NCBI GenBank assembly: GCA_963744145.1
Contig: CAVUSO010000001.1
Location: 5,248,001-5,312,000 of the forward strand
Length of the DNA: 64,000 bases
Direction: 5' to 3'
Origin: an uncultured cyanobacterium
GTDB lineage: Bacteria; Cyanobacteriota; Cyanobacteriia; Cyanobacteriales; CAWUOF01
The notes below the pieces were generated by a model, which was not told the DNA's origin, ran no database searches, and worked only from the letters and a program-made list of their open reading frames with translations. Made by a program: the position numbers and the translations under genes. Shown piece by piece: positions 25,801 to 34,234 of the stretch (position 1 is the stretch's first letter; every line of letters begins with the position of its first letter).

Positions 25801-26217
25801 ATGCCAGCTAAAGATTTATTTCACAATACAGTAAAAATAGCCCTTGAAAAAGATGGGTGGACGATCGTTAACGAGAATCTATTCATTAAAATTGATAAGA
25901 TTGAATTTTATATAGACTTAGTAGCAGATAGAATTTTAACAGCAGAGAAAGCTGATAAAAAGATAGCTGTAGAGGTAAAATCTTTTATAGGAGTATCTCT
26001 AGTAAGTGAGTTTCATACAGCGCTAGGTCAGTTCCTCAATTATCGCTCTGCTTTAAGAAAGCAACAACCAGAGCGGGTTTTATACTTGGCAGTGCCTTTT
26101 GATATTTATGATGATTTTTTTGCCAGTAGTTTTATTCAGGAAGTTATCGCAGAACATCAACTAAAACTGCTAATTTTTGAGCCAAACATAGAGGAGGTTG
26201 TTTTATGGATAAACTAA
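25801..26217 (+). CDS. xisH: XisH family protein
   Basis: MPAKDLFH..VKIALEKDGW, IAVEVKSF, FHTALGQFLNY. Confidence 0.93.
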   Translation: MPAKDLFHNTVKIALEKDGWTIVNENLFIKIDKIEFYIDLVADRILTAEKADKKIAVEVKSFIGVSLVSEFHTALGQFLNYRSALRKQQPERVLYLAVPFDIYDDFFASSFIQEVIAEHQLKLLIFEPNIEEVVLWIN

Positions 26218-26534
26218 ACTACAGCGAACTGGTGCAGAACATCATAAAAAATCATTTGGGGAATGGTTTAAATGCTAATACAGAAGTGCAATTAATATTT
26301 GATACGGAACGCGATCGCTATCAATTATTGCATATCGGTTGGCAAGATTTGCACCGAGTATTTGGTTGCATTATCTATATCGAAATCAAAAATAACAAAA
26401 TCTGGATCGAACGTGATGGCACTGAAATCGGAGTAGCTAATGAATTACTTGAAACTGGAGTACCTAAAGAAGATATAGTTTTAGCTTTTCACGCTCCTTA
26501 TAAACGGAAATATACCGAGTTTGCTGTTGGTTAG
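26205..26534 (+). CDS. xisI: XisI family protein
   Basis: MDKL, FDTERDRYQL, KIWIERDGTE, DIVLAFH.P. Confidence 0.93.
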   Translation: MDKLNYSELVQNIIKNHLGNGLNANTEVQLIFDTERDRYQLLHIGWQDLHRVFGCIIYIEIKNNKIWIERDGTEIGVANELLETGVPKEDIVLAFHAPYKRKYTEFAVG

Positions 26535-26790
26535 ATAAACATAATCTGCCAAATTCCTCTAGATATTTAGGATTATAGGAGAGGTCTTCAAGATCGCTAT
26601 CAAGACAGCCGATAAATTTTTGAGTCGCTGCGGCGAAGGATGTTTCGGCGGCTTCTAGTGCCACGGGTGTTTGCTGCTGAAGAGTACGGCTCGCTTGAAA
26701 TTCCAGAAATTCAATAAACTCAATGACTTTATTTTGTTGTTCGGGAGGAAGTTGGTGGATTTTTTGGATTGCTATTTCGAGAGTTAGCAT
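26464..26790 (-). CDS. DUF2281-like small protein
   Basis: LPPEQQNKVIEFIEFL; DLSYNPKYL; 3' end runs into xisI, possibly through a lost stop. Confidence 0.6.
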   Translation of the reverse strand: MLTLEIAIQKIHQLPPEQQNKVIEFIEFLEFQASRTLQQQTPVALEAAETSFAAATQKFIGCLDSDLEDLSYNPKYLEEFGRLCLSNQQQTRYISVYKEREKLKLYLL

Positions 26791-26798
26791 ATTGGGTG

Positions 26799-27446
26799 TT
26801 AGGTGATGGGTAGTGGGGAATGGGTAATGCTTTTGTTATACTCCCCATCCCCGAGTTCAAGGGTCAAACCGCGATAGACTTGCTCGATCGCCAAATTGAG
26901 ATTGATGCTTTTTAGTTCTATGATGTCGCCTGCTTGATAATTAATAATAATCCATTCGCCAGCATCGTTCTTGTGATACAAGTCTATTTCAATGGAAGTG
27001 GAGCTAACCAGTAAATAGTCCTTTAAGGCGGGATTATGGCGATATAGCCTAAACTTGCCGCCTCTGTCGTAAGCTTCTGTACTTTTGGATAAAACTTCAA
27101 CGATCAGACAGGGGTAGGTGAAGTAGTTGGGGGTGCTTTTGTCGCGATCGTCGCAGGTGACGCTGGCATCTGGGTAGGTATAGTTTTGAGTTCCAGCAAT
27201 GTTGATCTTGATATCAGAATTGCCGGGTATGCAGTTGCTGCCATCTAAATGAGCATCGAACAGGGCGGTAAACCGGATAGCAATGCGACCATGATTTACA
27301 CTGCCACCGCTCATAGCATAAACTTGGCCGTCGATATATTCATGCTTTTCGAGTTGCTGTTCTTCCCAAGTAAAATATTCTTCGGGGGTAAGAGGTGGGG
27401 CGTTATCTTTTGTGGTGATCATTTTTGGAGTGATAGGTAATGGCAT
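26799..27446 (-). CDS. Uma2 family (DUF820) endonuclease-like protein
   Basis: KHEYIDGQVYAMSGG, YPDASVTCD, PCLIVEVLS.STEAYDRG.KF. Confidence 0.92.
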   Translation of the reverse strand: MPLPITPKMITTKDNAPPLTPEEYFTWEEQQLEKHEYIDGQVYAMSGGSVNHGRIAIRFTALFDAHLDGSNCIPGNSDIKINIAGTQNYTYPDASVTCDDRDKSTPNYFTYPCLIVEVLSKSTEAYDRGGKFRLYRHNPALKDYLLVSSTSIEIDLYHKNDAGEWIIINYQAGDIIELKSINLNLAIEQVYRGLTLELGDGEYNKSITHSPLPIT

Positions 27447-27508
27447 AATGTCAAAATCCTTTAAGGTACAAGATATTTGGGCTGTATTGGATTTGAAGAG
27501 GTCAAGAA

Positions 27509-27724
27509 ATGCTCAAAGCCTATGAAGTCATAATTACAAATGGACAGATTCAATGGCAAGAAGAACAGCCAGATATTTATTCTGCACGAGCTATTATCAC
27601 CATTTTAGAAGAATTGCCTAAGTTTAAACGAACTACACCTCGACATTTGGTTGGCAAGATCAAGACTCTGGGTGATATTGTTAGTCCCATTGTCGATGAG
27701 GATGATTGGGAATGTCTGAAATAG
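27509..27724 (+). CDS. Putative antitoxin
   Basis: 71 aa with GKIKTLGDIVSPI...DWE tail, overlapping a PIN-toxin pseudogene. Confidence 0.65.
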   Translation: MLKAYEVIITNGQIQWQEEQPDIYSARAIITILEELPKFKRTTPRHLVGKIKTLGDIVSPIVDEDDWECLK

Positions 27725-28125
27725 TGGTTCTCCATACTCATATATGGGTGTGGTATATCAGTGAAGAGTTCCATCGTTTCCCTTCTTCATAGCTAAATCA
27801 GATTATAGATGCAGATATTGTTGGTGTTTCTGCCATTTGTTGCTATGAAATTGCCCTAGCTTATACTTGCCAAAGGCTAGAAATTGATATGCCACTTATG
27901 GATTGGTTTCAAAATGCTTTAGAACCTGCTGGCATTACATTATTACCCATTACTCCAGGCATTTCCAATCAAGCGGTAAGCTTATCTCCGATTCATAAAG
28001 ACCCCTTTGATCGCATCATTATTGCTACTGCTTTAGTGTACAATGCCCAACTTGCTAGTGTCGATCGCTGTTTTAGGGAATATCCCGAACTGATCAACCA
28101 TTTAATGCGTAATGAAGGGGGTTAA
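27712..28125 (+). pseudogene. vapC: VapC/PIN toxin pseudogene
   Basis: VVLHTHIWVW (LDTH motif with D to H), in-frame TAG near 27790, HKDPFDRIIIATA. Confidence 0.8.
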
Positions 28126-28688
28126 ATCATGTTAACGCAAGATTTAAAACTTATCTTTTGTGGTGATCATTTTTGGGTAGGAATAAAGATGGGGCTGATT
28201 CGGTTGTATGGAGCTTTTTATGCTGAGTTGTCTTGTTATAAAATTGAAAGGGAGCTTAAGACGGTGATAGGGTGCGATGATCATGGATTAAGCTTGTTGT
28301 CAGAGTGCCCCCTATTGTGGGGCGAGGTTTAAAATTCCGGCATTGTGGGTGGATGGGTAGTTTCAGAGGTGTTTTATATTGTTTCCATAAATAGTAAATT
28401 GGCAAAATCCTAGGTCAAATCAACTTATCTCGCTAAATATAGCGCCATTGCTACCTGCGGAATTCATCCTTTCGTGTATTCGTAAGGCATCTGTAGAATA
28501 AAGAGGTCGTGAAAGGCTACATTGTTTCTCTAAAGTTATACGAGTGAGGTGCGATCGCTTTCTCCCTCTCAAACTCTAACACGGTCGCGATCGCCTCTTT
28601 TCTCTTGTATTCAAGCACATTTCCTCCAGTCCCCAATCGATATTTGAATGAGGTCAGCCTCTACCCTACTAGATTAACCTTAATTATA

Positions 28689-28762
28689 TGGACACAACTG
28701 GGCTCGAACCAGCGACCTCGTCGATGTCAACGACGCGCTCTAACCAACTGAGCTATGCGTCC
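28689..28762 (-). tRNA. tRNA-Val(GAC)
   Basis: GGACGCATAGCTCAGTTGGTTAGAGCG-CGTCG-TTGACAT-CGACG-AGGTCGCTGGTTCGAGCCCAGTTGTGTCCA cloverleaf. Confidence 0.97.
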
Positions 28763-28864
28763 AGTCTGGATAATCACTATAGCATGAGGTTTTTGCAAAA
28801 TGCAAGTGGTAAGAACAATTTTTTTTGAGGTGGGCAATGAGTAGTCTAGAGCGGATAGCTGACG

Positions 28865-29137: not shown

Positions 29138-31432
29138 CTATAACCGACTGCTAAATGCCAAACAGTATATGGTAATTGTAATTAATACGATCCCCATATA
29201 CAGGAACCTAGCGCTAATACTGAGCAATCTGATCGCATTTTTATGTCCTTTACCTCGCAAACTTTCCACGATTAACCCAATTAGAAGACAGAACAAACAG
29301 AGACTAAAGAAGATATAGAAACCATATTCGATCGCAAATATATAGCCCGTGCTAGCAAGTTGAGAGTTGATTCCAGTTAAAAGTAATGCACTAGACAAGA
29401 GTGCAGATATAGCGACAGTTAGACGCTCTTTTACCATGTTCTCTGAAAAAAAGAGCGTACTAAATAATACTAATACCAAGAGACCCAATGGCAGTAATGT
29501 CTTGACTAAGAAAATGATAAACTGTCTTTGCAGTGTAATATTAGCAATTAAACCAGGATAATCGAGCTGAAGTTGTGCATTAAACAGTCGTGGATTGCCC
29601 CTAGTTGACTTGCTGCTAAAGGTTTGTTGAGCATATTGGATATTTTTGAAATTCCAGATTTCTAGAGATTTATAGGGATTTTTAATCTCCTCCGGATCAG
29701 GTTTAAACAATTTTAGTCCAAAGATATCGACAACATACATCAGGCGCTCACTGGGGATACGGATGTTTTGAAAGTAGAGTTTCAATGTTTGCTGATCAAA
29801 CGGGTAATCATGGAAATCATAGTTATTTCTAAATTCACCAGTAATATGATAAAGGCGATAGTTCAGTCCGTTAATAATATCAGTACGGATCGGTTTTTTT
29901 GGGTCGAATAAAGGCAGATTAGCATCCAGACTATTAGCAATACCCGTCGGAAAATTAATCGCGATCGCATCCTCATTACCACTGTAGCGCATCCATAAAT
30001 AAAAATCAGCAATAAAGCTGGATTTACTCTGATCAACGCGATTCAATTTGTTAATATCAATTCCCGTATATACTACTTCTTGTCTCCAGAAATATTGCTG
30101 ATTTGTTTGATGTGAATCAGTTAACTTAATCATATTTCCATTATTAATTTCTCGCTCCAAATTTACCAATTCAAAATGTTTTACAGGACTAAGCTGAGTT
30201 GAAGCTGAGATAATTGAGCGTCCGATAAACTGACCAAATCTAATTGCTGGATTATTATCATGATTGGCATTGAAATAAATATCACCGCTCAATCCTTTAA
30301 CAGCGACATCCGGAGAGTTAATGGCTTCAAGCTGATTACGAATTTGTTGGCGATCGCGTTTGATACTGGTAGGAGTATTTTGAATATTGGCGTTTTGAAT
30401 TGCTCGCACTGCCACCATAGCCGCATTGTAAAAGCATACTGCTACATAAGATGGAGACTTTCCATAAGCGTTCTGATAAGCACTGATAAACGATTGAGCT
30501 TCCACACCTGCACTATCTGCAATAATCGGTATCGCAAATCGAAGTCCGTTGATAAAATAACCTGGCTGCTGTTTTTCCTCATCATATTGGTCAAACAGAG
30601 CTGGAAATGTTTCTCTCCCGATGGTATCATTGCCAAGTAGTGTAACATTGAGATTACGTCGATGAATAGCAACAATGAATTCTTTGGCAAATTTATCACT
30701 AATGGCTAGAAAAACAATACCTGGTTCAGGATCTTTTGCTAAATCATTCACAATTTCATCAACAGATAATTGTAAATCCTCTGTTTCCGAGAACAACTCC
30801 CAAATATGTTTGATTTTCCCAGTTTGTTTAAAGGTTGCTGAAAATGCCATGCGAAGTGATCGCCCTGCGGCATCATCTGATGTAATTATGCTCGCAGTAT
30901 TGAATTTCAGTATTTGTTGAGCATATAGTGCTAAAAGAGTTCCCTGTTGCGTGTTAGTAAAAGTTGTGCGGAAATAGTAGGGATTAGCTTGGGTAAGGGT
31001 ATCAGCACTAGCTGTTCCAGTAATAACAGGAATTTCAAGTTTTTTATAAAGGGGAGCGGCTGCTATTGAAGTAGTGCTAGTCAGGTGCCCCAGGGTTACC
31101 AAGGCTGGACTTGTATCAATCTCCTTGACAACTTCCTGTGCAATCGTTGGATAGTCGCGATCATCATATATCAGCAACTTTAGGGGATAGCCATTGACAC
31201 CTCCTTGACGATTGATAGTATTGAAATAAAGTTGTACACCTTGAACCATTTCTTTTGCTGCTTCGCTACGGTTGCTGCCCAATGGAGCTACTAAAGCAAT
31301 CGGAATCGCATGAGCTTTTTTTAAATTTTGGCGGATCAGACCAGTAACTAACCCAAGTATAAGTAATGTTACTAAGGTAATTCCGACGTATTTTGTATAT
31401 TTATTGGTTCTCAACCGACTGAATTGCTGCAT
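29138..31432 (-). CDS. LIVBP-like binding domain fused to pentameric ligand-gated ion channel (paralog A)
   Basis: N-terminal TM; IALVAPL/GGVNG/YYFRT type-1 PBP; FIADFYLW, DFHDYPFDQQ Pro-loop, LQR-M1(LLP)-M2-M3-M4. Confidence 0.85.
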   Translation of the reverse strand: MQQFSRLRTNKYTKYVGITLVTLLILGLVTGLIRQNLKKAHAIPIALVAPLGSNRSEAAKEMVQGVQLYFNTINRQGGVNGYPLKLLIYDDRDYPTIAQEVVKEIDTSPALVTLGHLTSTTSIAAAPLYKKLEIPVITGTASADTLTQANPYYFRTTFTNTQQGTLLALYAQQILKFNTASIITSDDAAGRSLRMAFSATFKQTGKIKHIWELFSETEDLQLSVDEIVNDLAKDPEPGIVFLAISDKFAKEFIVAIHRRNLNVTLLGNDTIGRETFPALFDQYDEEKQQPGYFINGLRFAIPIIADSAGVEAQSFISAYQNAYGKSPSYVAVCFYNAAMVAVRAIQNANIQNTPTSIKRDRQQIRNQLEAINSPDVAVKGLSGDIYFNANHDNNPAIRFGQFIGRSIISASTQLSPVKHFELVNLEREINNGNMIKLTDSHQTNQQYFWRQEVVYTGIDINKLNRVDQSKSSFIADFYLWMRYSGNEDAIAINFPTGIANSLDANLPLFDPKKPIRTDIINGLNYRLYHITGEFRNNYDFHDYPFDQQTLKLYFQNIRIPSERLMYVVDIFGLKLFKPDPEEIKNPYKSLEIWNFKNIQYAQQTFSSKSTRGNPRLFNAQLQLDYPGLIANITLQRQFIIFLVKTLLPLGLLVLVLFSTLFFSENMVKERLTVAISALLSSALLLTGINSQLASTGYIFAIEYGFYIFFSLCLFCLLIGLIVESLRGKGHKNAIRLLSISARFLYMGIVLITITIYCLAFSSRL

Positions 31433-31476
31433 AACTGCTAATATTGGATTTAATTAAAAGTACAAGATCAATGATT

Positions 31477-33804
31477 TCAACTAATACGGTCCTTAAACAT
31501 AACCCAATAAACGATTACCGTCATTACCATCACTAGAATGTAAATAATTCGCGCTGCTTGATCAAGCCTTCTTGCCTGGAGATTATGTCCTTTCACGTTC
31601 AGGTTATCAGTGATAATAGAAATTGTTATACTGAACAAACTTAAGCAAAAGAAAATGTAGAAAACGTATTCTAATACTATGATATAGCCAACTTCCGATA
31701 GTTGATTGTTCATCCCAACTAGCAGTACCGTACCGGTAATTAAAGCTGCTACAGCAACGGGTGGACGATCTTTGCTGATTTTATGCGGAAAGTAAAGTGT
31801 TGTCATTGGTACAAGCATCAGCAAGAATAAAGGCAGCAGATTTTTGACTAAAAACACTAAGGAGCGTCGTTGCAAGGTGACAGTAGCACTTAAACCAGAG
31901 TAATCTACCCGATTTTTACTGCCAAATAGACGCGGATCGCCCTCATTAGATGTGATCCGAAAGGCTTCCTGAGCATAATCGAGCTGCTTAAATTTCCAAA
32001 GTTGCAAATCTTGATAGGGATCTTGTGCTGCTTCCGGATTGTTTGAGGAAAGTCTCAACCCAAAAGTATCAATTACATAAATCAGACGATCTATTGGCGT
32101 GGTAGTATTTTGAAAGCGAATGGTGAGATGCTGCTGATCAAACGGGTAATCATGGAGGTCAAATGGAGTTTTGAACTCGCCATGAATTTGATACAACCGA
32201 TAGTTGAGTCCGTCGATCTTGCTCGTTTCTAAGGGTGTATCTGGATTAAACAGTGGTTGACTGAGCGATAGACTCGTGCCACTGGGAAACTTAATATTGG
32301 TTGGATCGGCACCGTTAGGATAGCGAAACCATAGATAAAAATCAACAGTGAAGCTTGATTTGCGCTGATCTACTTGGCTAATCTCATTGATATCAATGCC
32401 TGTATAAACCACATTCTGTCTCCAGAAATAGATATTCCCTATCTGCACTATCCTTCCAGCTTGCAATTCACGCGGTATATTCACCCGATCTGGATTAAAG
32501 ATGGTTTCAAACTGCTGGGGTGCTGAGACAAATGTACGTTTCTGGAATTGAGCTATCTTGACTGGCTGATCGCTATCACGAGTGGCATTAAAATACAGGA
32601 GACCAGTTTGACCACTGGGTGCGACCTTGCGGCTATGAATCTGTTTAAGGGCATCGTAAACCCGTTGGCGATCTTGATCTCGACTACTGGTAGTCGCTTG
32701 GAGATGGGCATTCCGAATTGCTTCAATCGCTAGAATAGTCGCCTCATAATACTTTGTGCCCACATAGGAAGGTATTTTGCCGTAGTTTTTTTGATAGGTA
32801 TCCGCAAATTTTTGAGCATCAATACCTGCACTATCAAACAACAAGGGAGCCGTAGCATAAATGTCATCAGTAAAAAATCCTGGTTGCTGTTTTTCCTCTG
32901 GATATTCGTGAAAACGGTTGGCAAAGTCTTCTCTAGAAAGTGCCTGTCCTACCATGATTGGCAGTTTTAAGCCCTTCCTTTTCATCGCAACCAATAACTT
33001 TTCTGCTTCTTTCTCACCACGCATTGATAGATAAACAATTCCAGGATTAGGATCGGCAGCTAGTTCGTTGACGATCACCTGAATTGACTGATCCTTTCGT
33101 TGAGAATTGTTATCAATCGTGAGTTTGCGTTTAATGGTGCCACCGCTCTTGGTAAACGGGATCTCAAATTCTTCGGCTAACTTTTCCCCATACTTTTCAT
33201 ACTGAATGATGGTGGCATTATTGAGGCGGAGAACCAGGTTAGCATAGACACCAAGGACAGTGTTCAGGGTTGATCGAGTGTAGGTGTTCCGGAAATAGTA
33301 TGGATTATTGAGGGTGACACTATCGGTGTTGGCTGTACCCGTAATTGCGCTGAGGTGAGCTGCTTGATAAATTTCTCCCGCAGATTCACAAGATGCGGCT
33401 GTACGATGTCCTAACAAAACTACTGATGGACTATTAACAATTTCTGATGCTCGTTGTTTGGCAACTTTTTCATCGGCTCGATCATCAAATGTCAACAGTT
33501 TGATCGGATGTCCATCGATCCCACCCTTGGTGTTAACAGTATCAAGGTACATTTGCACGCTATGTACCATTTCTTCGCCAGCGATCGCTTCGTCTCCGCT
33601 TAACGGCGCTGCCAACGCGATGGAAATAGGAAAGTTATTTATCTTACTAAAAATAGCAGATATCAGCCCGAATAAAACAATTACCATGAGACCCCCAACT
33701 AATGCGATCACTCCATACCGCACTCGACGGTTCATGCTTTTAAACCAGGAAACCGCTTTTGAGCAGAATTCAAAAATCTGCTGGATCATAAACATTCCTT
33801 TCAA
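31477..33804 (-). CDS. LIVBP-like binding domain fused to pentameric ligand-gated ion channel (paralog B)
   Basis: Same architecture: IALAAPLSG, GGIDG, YYFRN; FTVDFYLW, DLHDYPFDQQ, LQRR-M1(LLP), four C-terminal TMs. Confidence 0.85.
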   Translation of the reverse strand: MKGMFMIQQIFEFCSKAVSWFKSMNRRVRYGVIALVGGLMVIVLFGLISAIFSKINNFPISIALAAPLSGDEAIAGEEMVHSVQMYLDTVNTKGGIDGHPIKLLTFDDRADEKVAKQRASEIVNSPSVVLLGHRTAASCESAGEIYQAAHLSAITGTANTDSVTLNNPYYFRNTYTRSTLNTVLGVYANLVLRLNNATIIQYEKYGEKLAEEFEIPFTKSGGTIKRKLTIDNNSQRKDQSIQVIVNELAADPNPGIVYLSMRGEKEAEKLLVAMKRKGLKLPIMVGQALSREDFANRFHEYPEEKQQPGFFTDDIYATAPLLFDSAGIDAQKFADTYQKNYGKIPSYVGTKYYEATILAIEAIRNAHLQATTSSRDQDRQRVYDALKQIHSRKVAPSGQTGLLYFNATRDSDQPVKIAQFQKRTFVSAPQQFETIFNPDRVNIPRELQAGRIVQIGNIYFWRQNVVYTGIDINEISQVDQRKSSFTVDFYLWFRYPNGADPTNIKFPSGTSLSLSQPLFNPDTPLETSKIDGLNYRLYQIHGEFKTPFDLHDYPFDQQHLTIRFQNTTTPIDRLIYVIDTFGLRLSSNNPEAAQDPYQDLQLWKFKQLDYAQEAFRITSNEGDPRLFGSKNRVDYSGLSATVTLQRRSLVFLVKNLLPLFLLMLVPMTTLYFPHKISKDRPPVAVAALITGTVLLVGMNNQLSEVGYIIVLEYVFYIFFCLSLFSITISIITDNLNVKGHNLQARRLDQAARIIYILVMVMTVIVYWVMFKDRIS

Positions 33805-34112
33805 ACTATGGGGTCATCACTAGAGTAAAATCTTACTCCTTTCCTGCTAGAAGATCACATAACTATATCTATATATCACGGTAAGTAATTTTATGGTTGG
33901 AAGAGAGTAGGTTGAATAATTTCACACACAACCCGAATATTAAATGGTTAGATTTTTAATGGAATATTTGAGTGAACACCAACATCATCTACTGAAAAGA
34001 GCAGGCGAATGGGTTTTTGATAGATCGCGATCGCATTAACTAAACTTAATCAATATGGACAGTAGTTTAAGGTTTCACTGTCTATTTTTGTCAGCAGGTC
34101 TTTTTGTATATA

Positions 34113-34234
34113 AGACCTCTTGCAAAAGTCCTTATTCATCTATTTATTGACAGGCAAGATGCCTGTCCCACCAGAAAAAATCACTTTTGTGGGACAGGCA
34201 TCTTGCCTGTCCTATTTATTTTTGCAAGAGGTCT
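34113..34234. repeat. MITE/REPIN-like element with nested REP palindromes
   Basis: TIR AGACCTCTTGCAAAA / TTTTGCAAGAGGTCT enclosing the inverted pair GACAGGCAAGATGCCTGTCCCAC / GTGGGACAGGCATCTTGCCTGTC. Confidence 0.75.

Follow-up and report, generated by a model that had tools for sequence, protein, structure and literature searches.

Fusions of a type-1 periplasmic binding protein (PBP-I) domain to an ion channel of the pentameric ligand-gated type (pLGIC) were predicted from the genomes of Magnetospirillum and Bradyrhizobium by Tasneem et al. in 2005 (PMC549065). The portions of that paper cited here argue for probable homopentamers in bacteria, on the ground that most genomes have a single copy, and suggest a role in chemotaxis. 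A 2022 review, in its cited portions, states that many prokaryotic pLGIC N-terminal domains resemble periplasmic binding proteins, and DeCLIC (PDB 6v4a) is described in the cited portions of two papers as the only structurally determined pLGIC with an extra N-terminal domain (PMC9897478, PMC12664993). The terms N-terminal, PBP and heteromer do not occur in the main text of Jaiteh et al. 2016. Here we analyse a tandem pair of such fusion genes, B and A, in a 64,000-nucleotide stretch (the window) of contig CAVUSO010000001.1 from an uncultured cyanobacterium (assembly GCA_963744145.1). An earlier note, made from the sequence alone, had held that fusions of this kind were noted in genome surveys, with no functional study known. 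The 2005 predictions agree with this, as does a full-text literature search missing most subscription-journal papers, in which neither functional work on a flytrap-pLGIC fusion nor a description of a heteromeric pLGIC from bacteria turned up. The fusion architecture is already known in silico, and the conserved array of differentiated subunits is what is new. To our knowledge, the bacterial pLGICs studied (GLIC, ELIC, sTeLIC and DeCLIC) are all homopentamers from single genes, and the origin of heteromeric pLGIC assembly has been addressed in animal receptors only.

The class predicted in 2005 resembles A and B in that the PBP-I domain lies N-terminal to a complete pLGIC in a single chain. Probable single-copy homopentamers were argued for the bacterial forms in that paper, whereas the cyanobacteria considered here carry a conserved two- to three-gene array with differentiated subunit types. 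DeCLIC, likewise from a prokaryote, bears a large accessory domain in the periplasm before its extracellular domain, and is the highest-identity structural match of the B channel module (Z 21.4, 21% identity; phmmer E 2.9e-6), with B residues 441-773 aligned to DeCLIC chain residues 306-639. The papers describe its N-terminal domain as a pair of lobes with kinship to regulatory domains that bind calcium, and give the channel as calcium-modulated and homopentameric; A and B instead carry a LIVBP-type flytrap, and their locus encodes two subunit types. GLIC, ELIC and sTeLIC share the extracellular and transmembrane fold of B (Z 22.6, 18.9 and 22.3, respectively) and, with both A and B, the Pro-loop, the pre-M1 Arg and an acidic -1' residue as in cationic channels. 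They are single genes without an accessory domain, and B differs from them by Ile at 9' and Pro-Pro at 1'-2'.

Two animal systems offer parallels. Heteromeric Cys-loop receptors (nAChR, GABA-A, GlyR) are the proposed parallel for paralogous subunits with differentiated M2 helices, and heteromeric GABA-A and Gly receptor chains were among the top fold matches of the B channel model. A and B have neither the Cys-loop disulfide nor an intracellular domain, and heteromeric assembly, established in the animal receptors, is here only proposed. Class C G protein-coupled receptors (GPCRs; mGluR, GABA-B, T1R) and the amino-terminal domains (ATDs) of ionotropic glutamate receptors (iGluRs) resemble A and B in placing a LIVBP fold before a membrane signalling module. 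The A flytrap matched the mGluR2 extracellular domain (ECD; Z 33.7), GABA-B ECDs (Z ~30) and GluK ATDs (Z ~31). GABA-B and T1R use heteromeric flytrap pairs. The membrane modules differ, being a pentameric channel in A and B, a 7-transmembrane dimer in class C GPCRs and a tetrameric channel in iGluRs, and five flytraps per complex cannot all form dimer pairs, unlike those of mGluR/GABA-B-type receptors.

Domain architecture of the gene pair

The minus strand carries two long co-oriented open reading frames (ORFs). Gene B, the upstream one (31477..33804), encodes 775 aa from a TTG at 33804, and ATG codons of the same frame at 33795 (3 codons later) and 33789 (5 codons later) are alternative starts; gene A (29138..31432) encodes 764 aa from an ATG. 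Their 44-nt spacer (31433..31476, minus strand) runs from the TGA stop of B to the ATG of A, and a consensus terminator scan reported no terminator-like hairpin inside it. The earlier note, whose letters we keep (A downstream, B upstream), had described two co-oriented paralogs 44 nt apart, and the ORF list bears this out. Each chain has a transmembrane (TM) or signal segment, a type-1 PBP domain and a pLGIC module, with a canonical pore in A and a B-type pore in B. In A the N-terminal hydrophobic segment is directly followed by AHA and may be cut off as a signal peptide instead of staying in place as a TM segment. The two proteins are 43% identical across 759 aa (binding domain 39.5%, extracellular channel domain 54.8%, membrane domain 43.5%) and 49% identical over the C-terminal channel part. 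The G+C content of the pair (0.37-0.44) is unremarkable against its flanks, and A and B were the only pLGIC genes found in the 7.7 Mb genome.

Both flytraps were recognised by Peripla_BP_6, with scores of 115.3 bits for A and 93.2 bits for B against a Pfam cut-off of 31.7, and both also passed the Pfam cut-off of ANF_receptor. The domain spans residues 59-420 in B (32545..33630, minus strand; Pfam E 3.2e-26, LivJ 1z15 E 7.5e-11) and residues 41-418 in A (30179..31312, minus strand; Pfam E 6.1e-33). The nearest solved relatives by sequence are LIVBP-type binding proteins (3hut, 4gnr, LivJ 1z15). Full-length A was modelled with AlphaFold2 from a 100-row family alignment (mean pLDDT 90.2, pTM 0.86), and residues 41-418 of the model matched LivK 3td9 and LivJ 4gnr (Z 44.9, rmsd 1.8-1.9, 345-346 residues). 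Weaker matches (Z 26-35) were to the flytraps of mGluR, GABA-B, T1R and the iGluR amino-terminal domain.

Foldseek and VIA-align with the full-length A model gave only binding-protein or flytrap matches among those listed. Because flytrap matches fill that list, the channel fold was examined on a separate model of the B C terminus (residues 436-775, pLDDT 88.4). All Foldseek matches listed for this model were pLGIC chains (best E 4.2e-20, TM ~0.7). VIA-align, which is independent of Foldseek, gave GluCl (Z 23.7, rmsd 2.7, 291 aligned residues), followed by the four bacterial channels at the values given above; below the pLGICs its rows fall to unrelated helical bundles (Z 8-9). The B module comprises an extracellular beta-sandwich at about residues 452-646 (31867..32451, minus strand), with a DYPFDQQ Pro-loop and pre-M1 Arg, delimited from the model and its fold matches, and a transmembrane domain, M1-M4, at about residues 648-769 (31498..31863, minus strand), with M2 running from K678-D-R-P-P to I689 and an extra Pro in M1 (LVPM). 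In A the extracellular domain covers residues 446-636 (29525..30097, minus strand; FYLW, DYPFDQQ, a loop-C-like STRGNPRLF and R636) and M1-M4 residues 638-759 (29156..29521, minus strand), with M2 running from K668-E-R-L-T through S676 (6') to L679 (9'). Residues 446-759 of the full-length A model have the same strand and helix order as the B channel part. Together with the 49% identity to B and a shared profile, this supports a pLGIC fold for the channel half of A. The condition that the earlier note had set for its own refutation, C-terminal halves without a pLGIC fold, thus did not hold, as shown directly on the B model.

Curated models gave a divided answer to the profile searches that the earlier note had proposed. 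Peripla_BP_6 was passed, as above, whereas A and B stayed below the Pfam thresholds of Neur_chan_LBD and Neur_chan_memb (best 11.9-14.6 bits against cut-offs of 26-28) and below that of NCBIfam LGIC_1 (35-39 bits against 500). A family profile built from 70 C-terminal modules (339 positions) and searched against PDB did reach pLGICs: it matched 306 distinct PDB sequences at E <= 0.001, and the best 60 of the 306 were all pLGIC chains. The top match was a GLIC-GABAAR chimera (5osa, E 7.4e-21, profile positions 31-338 of 339), and GLIC itself was matched at E 1.5e-15. Since the family profile reaches PDB pLGICs at E 7e-21, the miss of the curated models reflects divergence from these models. Profiles and predicted folds thus confirm, at the level of models, that both genes encode a flytrap and a complete pLGIC module in one chain, as the earlier note had claimed; the B model matches pLGICs throughout.

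Motifs and pore-lining residues

The channel motifs listed in the earlier note (FYLW, YPFDQQ, pre-M1 Arg, M1 Pro and differing M2 helices) were all found. They read FIADFYLW and FTVDFYLW, DYPFDQQ in both proteins, pre-M1 R636 and LLPL in M1, and the M2 strings are ERLTVAISALLSSALL in A and DRPPVAVAALITGTVL in B. Across the 100 rows of the family alignment 12 residues are invariant, including Pro-loop P544 and D546 and pre-M1 R636, and the M1 LLPL is nearly so. Prime numbering was set by profile alignment to the GABA-A alpha M2. On this scale M2 reads K(-2') E(-1') R(0') L T(2') V A I S(6') A L L(9') in A and K D R P P(2') V A V A(6') A L I(9') in B. The 2'/6'/9' positions, at which a 9' Leu gate and polar 2' and 6' rings would lie, are therefore Thr/Ser/Leu in A and Pro/Ala/Ile in B.

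Acidic residues at -1' go with cation selectivity in pLGIC selectivity filters. As the GABA-A alpha alignment upholds an acidic -1' in A (Glu) and in B (Asp), both pores are probably cation-selective, consistent with the earlier proposal. The M2-M3 loop Pro, present in the wider-family consensus QLPEVGY, is missing in A and in the window's B, again as had been read from the sequence. Loop C is strongly conserved as S-x-S-T-x-G-[DN]-P-x-[LF]-F; G612 never varies, and S609 and T610 hardly do. This striking conservation makes it conceivable that the canonical inter-subunit site, or a flytrap contact at it, may matter for gating, which is offered as speculation.

A conserved array and a pore type confined to it

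Conservation of the pair in other cyanobacteria was supported by a B-then-A array at seven non-redundant loci: the window, Nostoc (L028), Phormidesmis (L029), Limnothrix (L030), L034 (with L027), L104 and L106. The arrays hold two or three genes in the order B then A, with the A type always last. An A-type gene lies directly downstream in 6/6 non-redundant loci with enough sequence, and its M2 is KERL[TK]VAIS with Leu at 9'. In the seventh, L034, the contig ends before the array does, and the A gene of this Oscillatoriales metagenome-assembled genome (MAG) stands on another short contig, L027. The other two-gene loci come from Nostoc sp. CHAB 5844 (L028), a Phormidesmis MAG (L029) and a Limnothrix MAG (L030, on the same contig as L007). 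In trees, the downstream genes of L028, L029 and L030 group with A and their upstream genes with B; L027 falls in the A clade and L034 in the B clade. Because A and B fall in separate orthologous clades, with both types represented in each array, their duplication is older than these lineages. Orthologues that are 52-71% identical retain full-length open frames. In the four genome loci the B-A gaps are 44, 51, 25 and 8 nt, and no shared neighbour gene was seen beyond the array, so the array is read as a self-contained unit.

A metagenome scan with the B-clade alignment returned 55 relatives in 52 loci, four of them of this kind (L103-L106). L103 is identical to L034, L104 and L106 each have three genes in a row, and L105 is a single gene. 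Three-gene arrays have the order B''-B-A (L104:1668-8678; L106:3968-10295; L034 with L027), and their M2 types are KERAS or KERAA with Ile 9' in B'', KDRPP with Ile 9' in B and KERLT with Leu 9' in A. Since three-gene arrays exist, the two-gene form in the window is one state of a variable subunit cluster.

The channel modules were also compared on their own. A channel-only tree resolved an A-type clade (6 rows, support 98), a B-type clade made up exclusively of array genes (10 rows, support 99), which includes the B'' subclade (KERAS/KERAA), and, sister to B, a P-type clade (8 rows, support 100) that includes Pseudanabaena, L070 and L105, all stand-alone. The 9' residue was surveyed in 163 family ORFs aligned to the channel profile, 159 of which cover it: 144 modules have Leu, 11 Ile, 2 Val, 1 Ala and 1 Phe. 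All 11 Ile-9' modules (9 non-redundant genes) are B or B'' genes within arrays, and the stand-alone relatives all keep Leu 9'. Pro-Pro at 1'-2' occurs in 5/6 B-clade rows and 0/94 other rows of the 100-row set. Among the 159 modules and in the channel tree, no B-channel-clade gene was seen without an A-type gene ending its array. Judged from these alignments, the Ile-9' pore of B is a departure from the 9' Leu of the superfamily that is confined to arrays, whereas the canonical pore type does occur by itself in other lineages, as in single-copy Verrucomicrobiota genes. Because this unusual pore type was only found beside the A type, A and B may form the first bacterial mixed-subunit channel of their kind.

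Stand-alone P-type channels of Pseudanabaena and its relatives in the wider alignment (L031-L069, L100 and L070; 39/100 rows of alignment A2) have V-P-R at -2' to 0'. They have no acidic -1' residue, which hints that their ion selectivity differs from that of A and B.

Binding pockets and exchange of modules

N-lobe pocket positions were compared through an alignment to LivJ 1z15 in 5 rows of the A clade and 6 rows of the B clade. At LivJ Val15 the A clade has Arg in 5/5 (Arg55) and the B clade Glu in 6/6 (Glu72); at Leu77 the A clade has Leu (Leu117) and the B clade Arg in 5/6 (Arg134). LivJ Ser79 corresponds to Ser in the A clade (Ser119) and to Ser, Thr or Ala in the B clade (Ala136 in the window's B), and Thr102 to Ser (Ser142) and to Asn in 5/6 (Asn159). 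Tyr at LivJ Tyr150 is found in 1/5 A-clade and 6/6 B-clade rows. In E. coli LivJ, Ser79 and Thr102 presumably hold the alpha-amino acid backbone. Given these clade-conserved differences, the A and B flytraps probably bind different ligands. Close structural neighbours of the A flytrap bind amino acids, aromatic acids, pyroglutamate, amides and urea, a wide range in which the amino-acid ligand proposed in the earlier note is one candidate. We also considered the B flytrap as a degenerate partner that has lost ligand binding, as in GABA-B2, and rejected this for the clade, other B-clade genes having Ser or Thr at LivJ Ser79.

Flytraps and channels do not always travel together. In the stand-alone gene L105:899-3334 a flytrap of B type (64-84% identity to the B types) sits on a P-type channel, and gene 2 of L106 (6202-8601) has an A-like flytrap on a B channel. 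Genes 1 and 2 of L104 (1668-6295) share 1247 nt of flytrap sequence at 99.84% while their channel modules differ, through either gene conversion or a metagenome assembly artefact. Whole-protein trees place L070, L105 and L106 gene 2 inconsistently, which sliding-window identities and the channel-only tree showed to be domain reshuffling; clades were for this reason defined on the channel module.

One heteropentamer or two channels

That A and B are subunits of one co-transcribed, co-assembling heteropentameric receptor-channel is the best-fitting reading, and one on which we find ourselves evenly balanced. It is favoured by the fixed order of a derived B type beside a canonical A, by their tight spacing, and by the recurrence of the unit in varying contexts with B never alone. 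The earlier note had proposed such a heteropentamer from the window alone; the conserved B-then-A arrays and a B pore signature unseen in stand-alone genes strengthen the proposal, which stays conditional. In bacteria, membrane oligomers encoded by two paralogues in tandem commonly form only as hetero-oligomers; paired SMR transporters, CrcB/Fluc pairs and heterodimeric ABC exporters are examples.

In the mechanism we propose, one transcript would carry both B and A, and each chain would be exported through its N-terminal signal or anchor, so that the receptor-channel would face the periplasm. Each LIVBP-type flytrap, sitting atop the pLGIC extracellular domain and the four-helix pore domain, would close on a small ligand, with pockets that differ between A and B. 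The chains would co-assemble as a heteropentamer whose canonical ring of pore residues (Thr at 2', Ser at 6' and Leu at 9') would come from A. B would be a derived, non-autonomous subunit (1'-2' Pro-Pro, 9' Ile, extra M1 Pro) that may tune gating or conductance and add a second ligand specificity. Flytrap closure would then be relayed to the extracellular domain and open a probably cation-selective pore (-1' Glu in A, Asp in B). In its widest form the proposal is of the first bacterial heteropentameric pLGIC, an operon of two to three subunits (A with derived B and B'' subunits unable to function alone), each with its own flytrap and together integrating two to three ligands; we hold this tentatively, with a confidence a little short of an even balance. 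If it is right, subunit heteromerisation and flytrap-channel coupling, regarded as traits of animal receptors, arose independently in cyanobacteria. With just two bacterial genes, one for a canonical and one for a derived subunit, the pair would then be a compact model in which subunit specialisation could be studied by expression. It would also provide a natural setting for testing how a pentameric pore can be driven by a flytrap, which serves as sensor in mGluR, GABA-B and iGluR amino-terminal domains.

A second explanation, a real possibility although on the improbable side, is that A and B are two independent homopentameric flytrap-gated channels, which arose by tandem duplication, diverged in ligand and pore, and each self-assemble, any co-transcription being due to their adjacency alone. 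Much of the comparative record weighs against a heteromer and suits this explanation, beginning with the distribution of the family. Among same-order genomes, 32/301 hold a relative of the A channel module, mostly as a single gene, and just a few of the 32 have two genes on one contig. A scan of species-representative genomes, from which the best 80 of 132 relatives were kept, gave 76 loci from cyanobacteria (many of them Pseudanabaena), Bradyrhizobium (35-36% identity), Verrucomicrobiota, Chloroflexota and others; 72/76 loci have one channel gene and 4/76 have two. Two complete Pseudanabaena genomes have exactly one copy each. Because single-gene forms are the norm, homopentamers are the default expectation, in keeping with the argument made in the cited portions of Tasneem et al. 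2005 (PMC549065). Single-copy Verrucomicrobiota genes have an A-like M2, KERLTIAIS, so near to that of A that A could work alone. Other tandem pairs (G028, G006) are recent lineage-specific duplications without such differentiation.

Several features of the pair itself point the same way. All 12 family-invariant residues are retained in A and B, and neither appears degenerate. The clade-conserved pocket differences (Arg55, Leu117 and Ser142 in A; Glu72, Arg134 and Asn159 in B) are as expected of two independent sensors, and the module swaps in L105 and L106 gene 2 suit modular, self-sufficient sensors. The array is of shared descent and includes several close relatives, so 6/6 does not amount to six separate origins; a 9' Ile in place of Leu is a mild substitution; and separate homopentamers with different ligands or pores would likewise persist in tandem. 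The comparative support for the heteromer is, in this light, circumstantial. A complex prediction with the A channel module (440-764) and the B module scored 0.02 against a mark of 0.32, without controls, and speaks neither for nor against binding. A look-up of sequencing runs listed no RNA run for the 4,667-nt stretch, which weighs neither way on co-transcription.

Independent homopentamers fit less well with the confinement of the B-channel clade to arrays that end in an A-type gene, where alone B leaves the near-universal 9' Leu. They also sit uneasily with an order and tight spacing kept across cyanobacterial families while the flanking genes all differ. The adjacent L104 genes with near-identical flytraps, possibly an assembly artefact, are ill-suited to two-ligand sensors. 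It is very improbable that the pLGIC module is no longer a ligand-gated pore, whether it anchors a flytrap that works in uptake or signals by way of some other protein, or whether B is a duplicate in decay: the unreached Neur_chan and LGIC models, the database names of the orthologues and the nearby ABC ATPase gene would suit this, but orthologues of 52-71% identity keep full-length open frames, the Pro-loop, the pre-M1 Arg, the Pro of M1 and a polar/hydrophobic pattern in M2, confident models match GLIC, GluCl and DeCLIC over the whole extracellular and transmembrane parts (Z 21-24), no ABC permease was found among the ORFs of 80 aa or more in the few kb around the pair, and a terminator-like palindrome separates the ATPase gene from gene B.

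Genomic surroundings and database names

The genes flanking the heteromer candidate are unrelated to it. An ABC ATPase gene with a TOBE domain lies 0.8 kb upstream of gene B, and a scan of the neighbouring ORFs of 80 aa or more (26-37 kb of the window) found no ABC permease. A further flanking gene is geranylgeranyl-reductase-like. The earlier note had guessed that the pair would be mis-annotated, and both orthologues in Nostoc sp. CHAB 5844 are indeed named 'ABC transporter substrate-binding protein'. The name is unfit for a flytrap that is fused to a channel and has no permease nearby and no conserved neighbour. Because such genes are annotated as ABC-transporter binding proteins, the channel nature of the family is hidden in databases.

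The non-coding region upstream of gene B (33805..34215, minus strand) presumably holds the promoter of the putative operon. At its far end (~34140-34215), after the preceding ABC-ATPase gene, are two copies of a palindromic terminator-like unit with a 12-bp stem. Octamers of the GCGATCGC type are frequent between the ATPase gene and gene B.

Downstream of gene A, in order of position, are a XisH gene (25801-26217), a XisI gene (26205-26534), a Uma2 nuclease gene (26799-27446, minus strand), a 78-aa ORF that matches just the C-terminal half of a PIN domain (27889-28125) and a tRNA-Val(GAC) (28688-28763, minus strand). About 1.7 kb of this interval (25801-28763) is without an ORF of at least 80 aa.

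Unusual members of the family

One relative, L023:4941-7388 (G180), has a very long branch (end branch 2.0-2.5) and an odd amino-acid composition. It was matched as two pieces within one open frame in the genome search, and may be in decay or wrongly assembled.

In some cyanobacterial relatives a single chain has three ligand-type domains, namely Peripla_BP_6, the pLGIC module and a C-terminal SBP_bac_1 or SBP_bac_8 domain. These chains measure 1096-1225 aa from stop to stop and were found in tandem at L008 (903-4466 and 4553-8107) and at L009:3457-7131, L020:4276-7563 and L021:2774-6391. In the usual pLGIC topology the M4 end faces the periplasm, and the second binding domain would on that basis be periplasmic.

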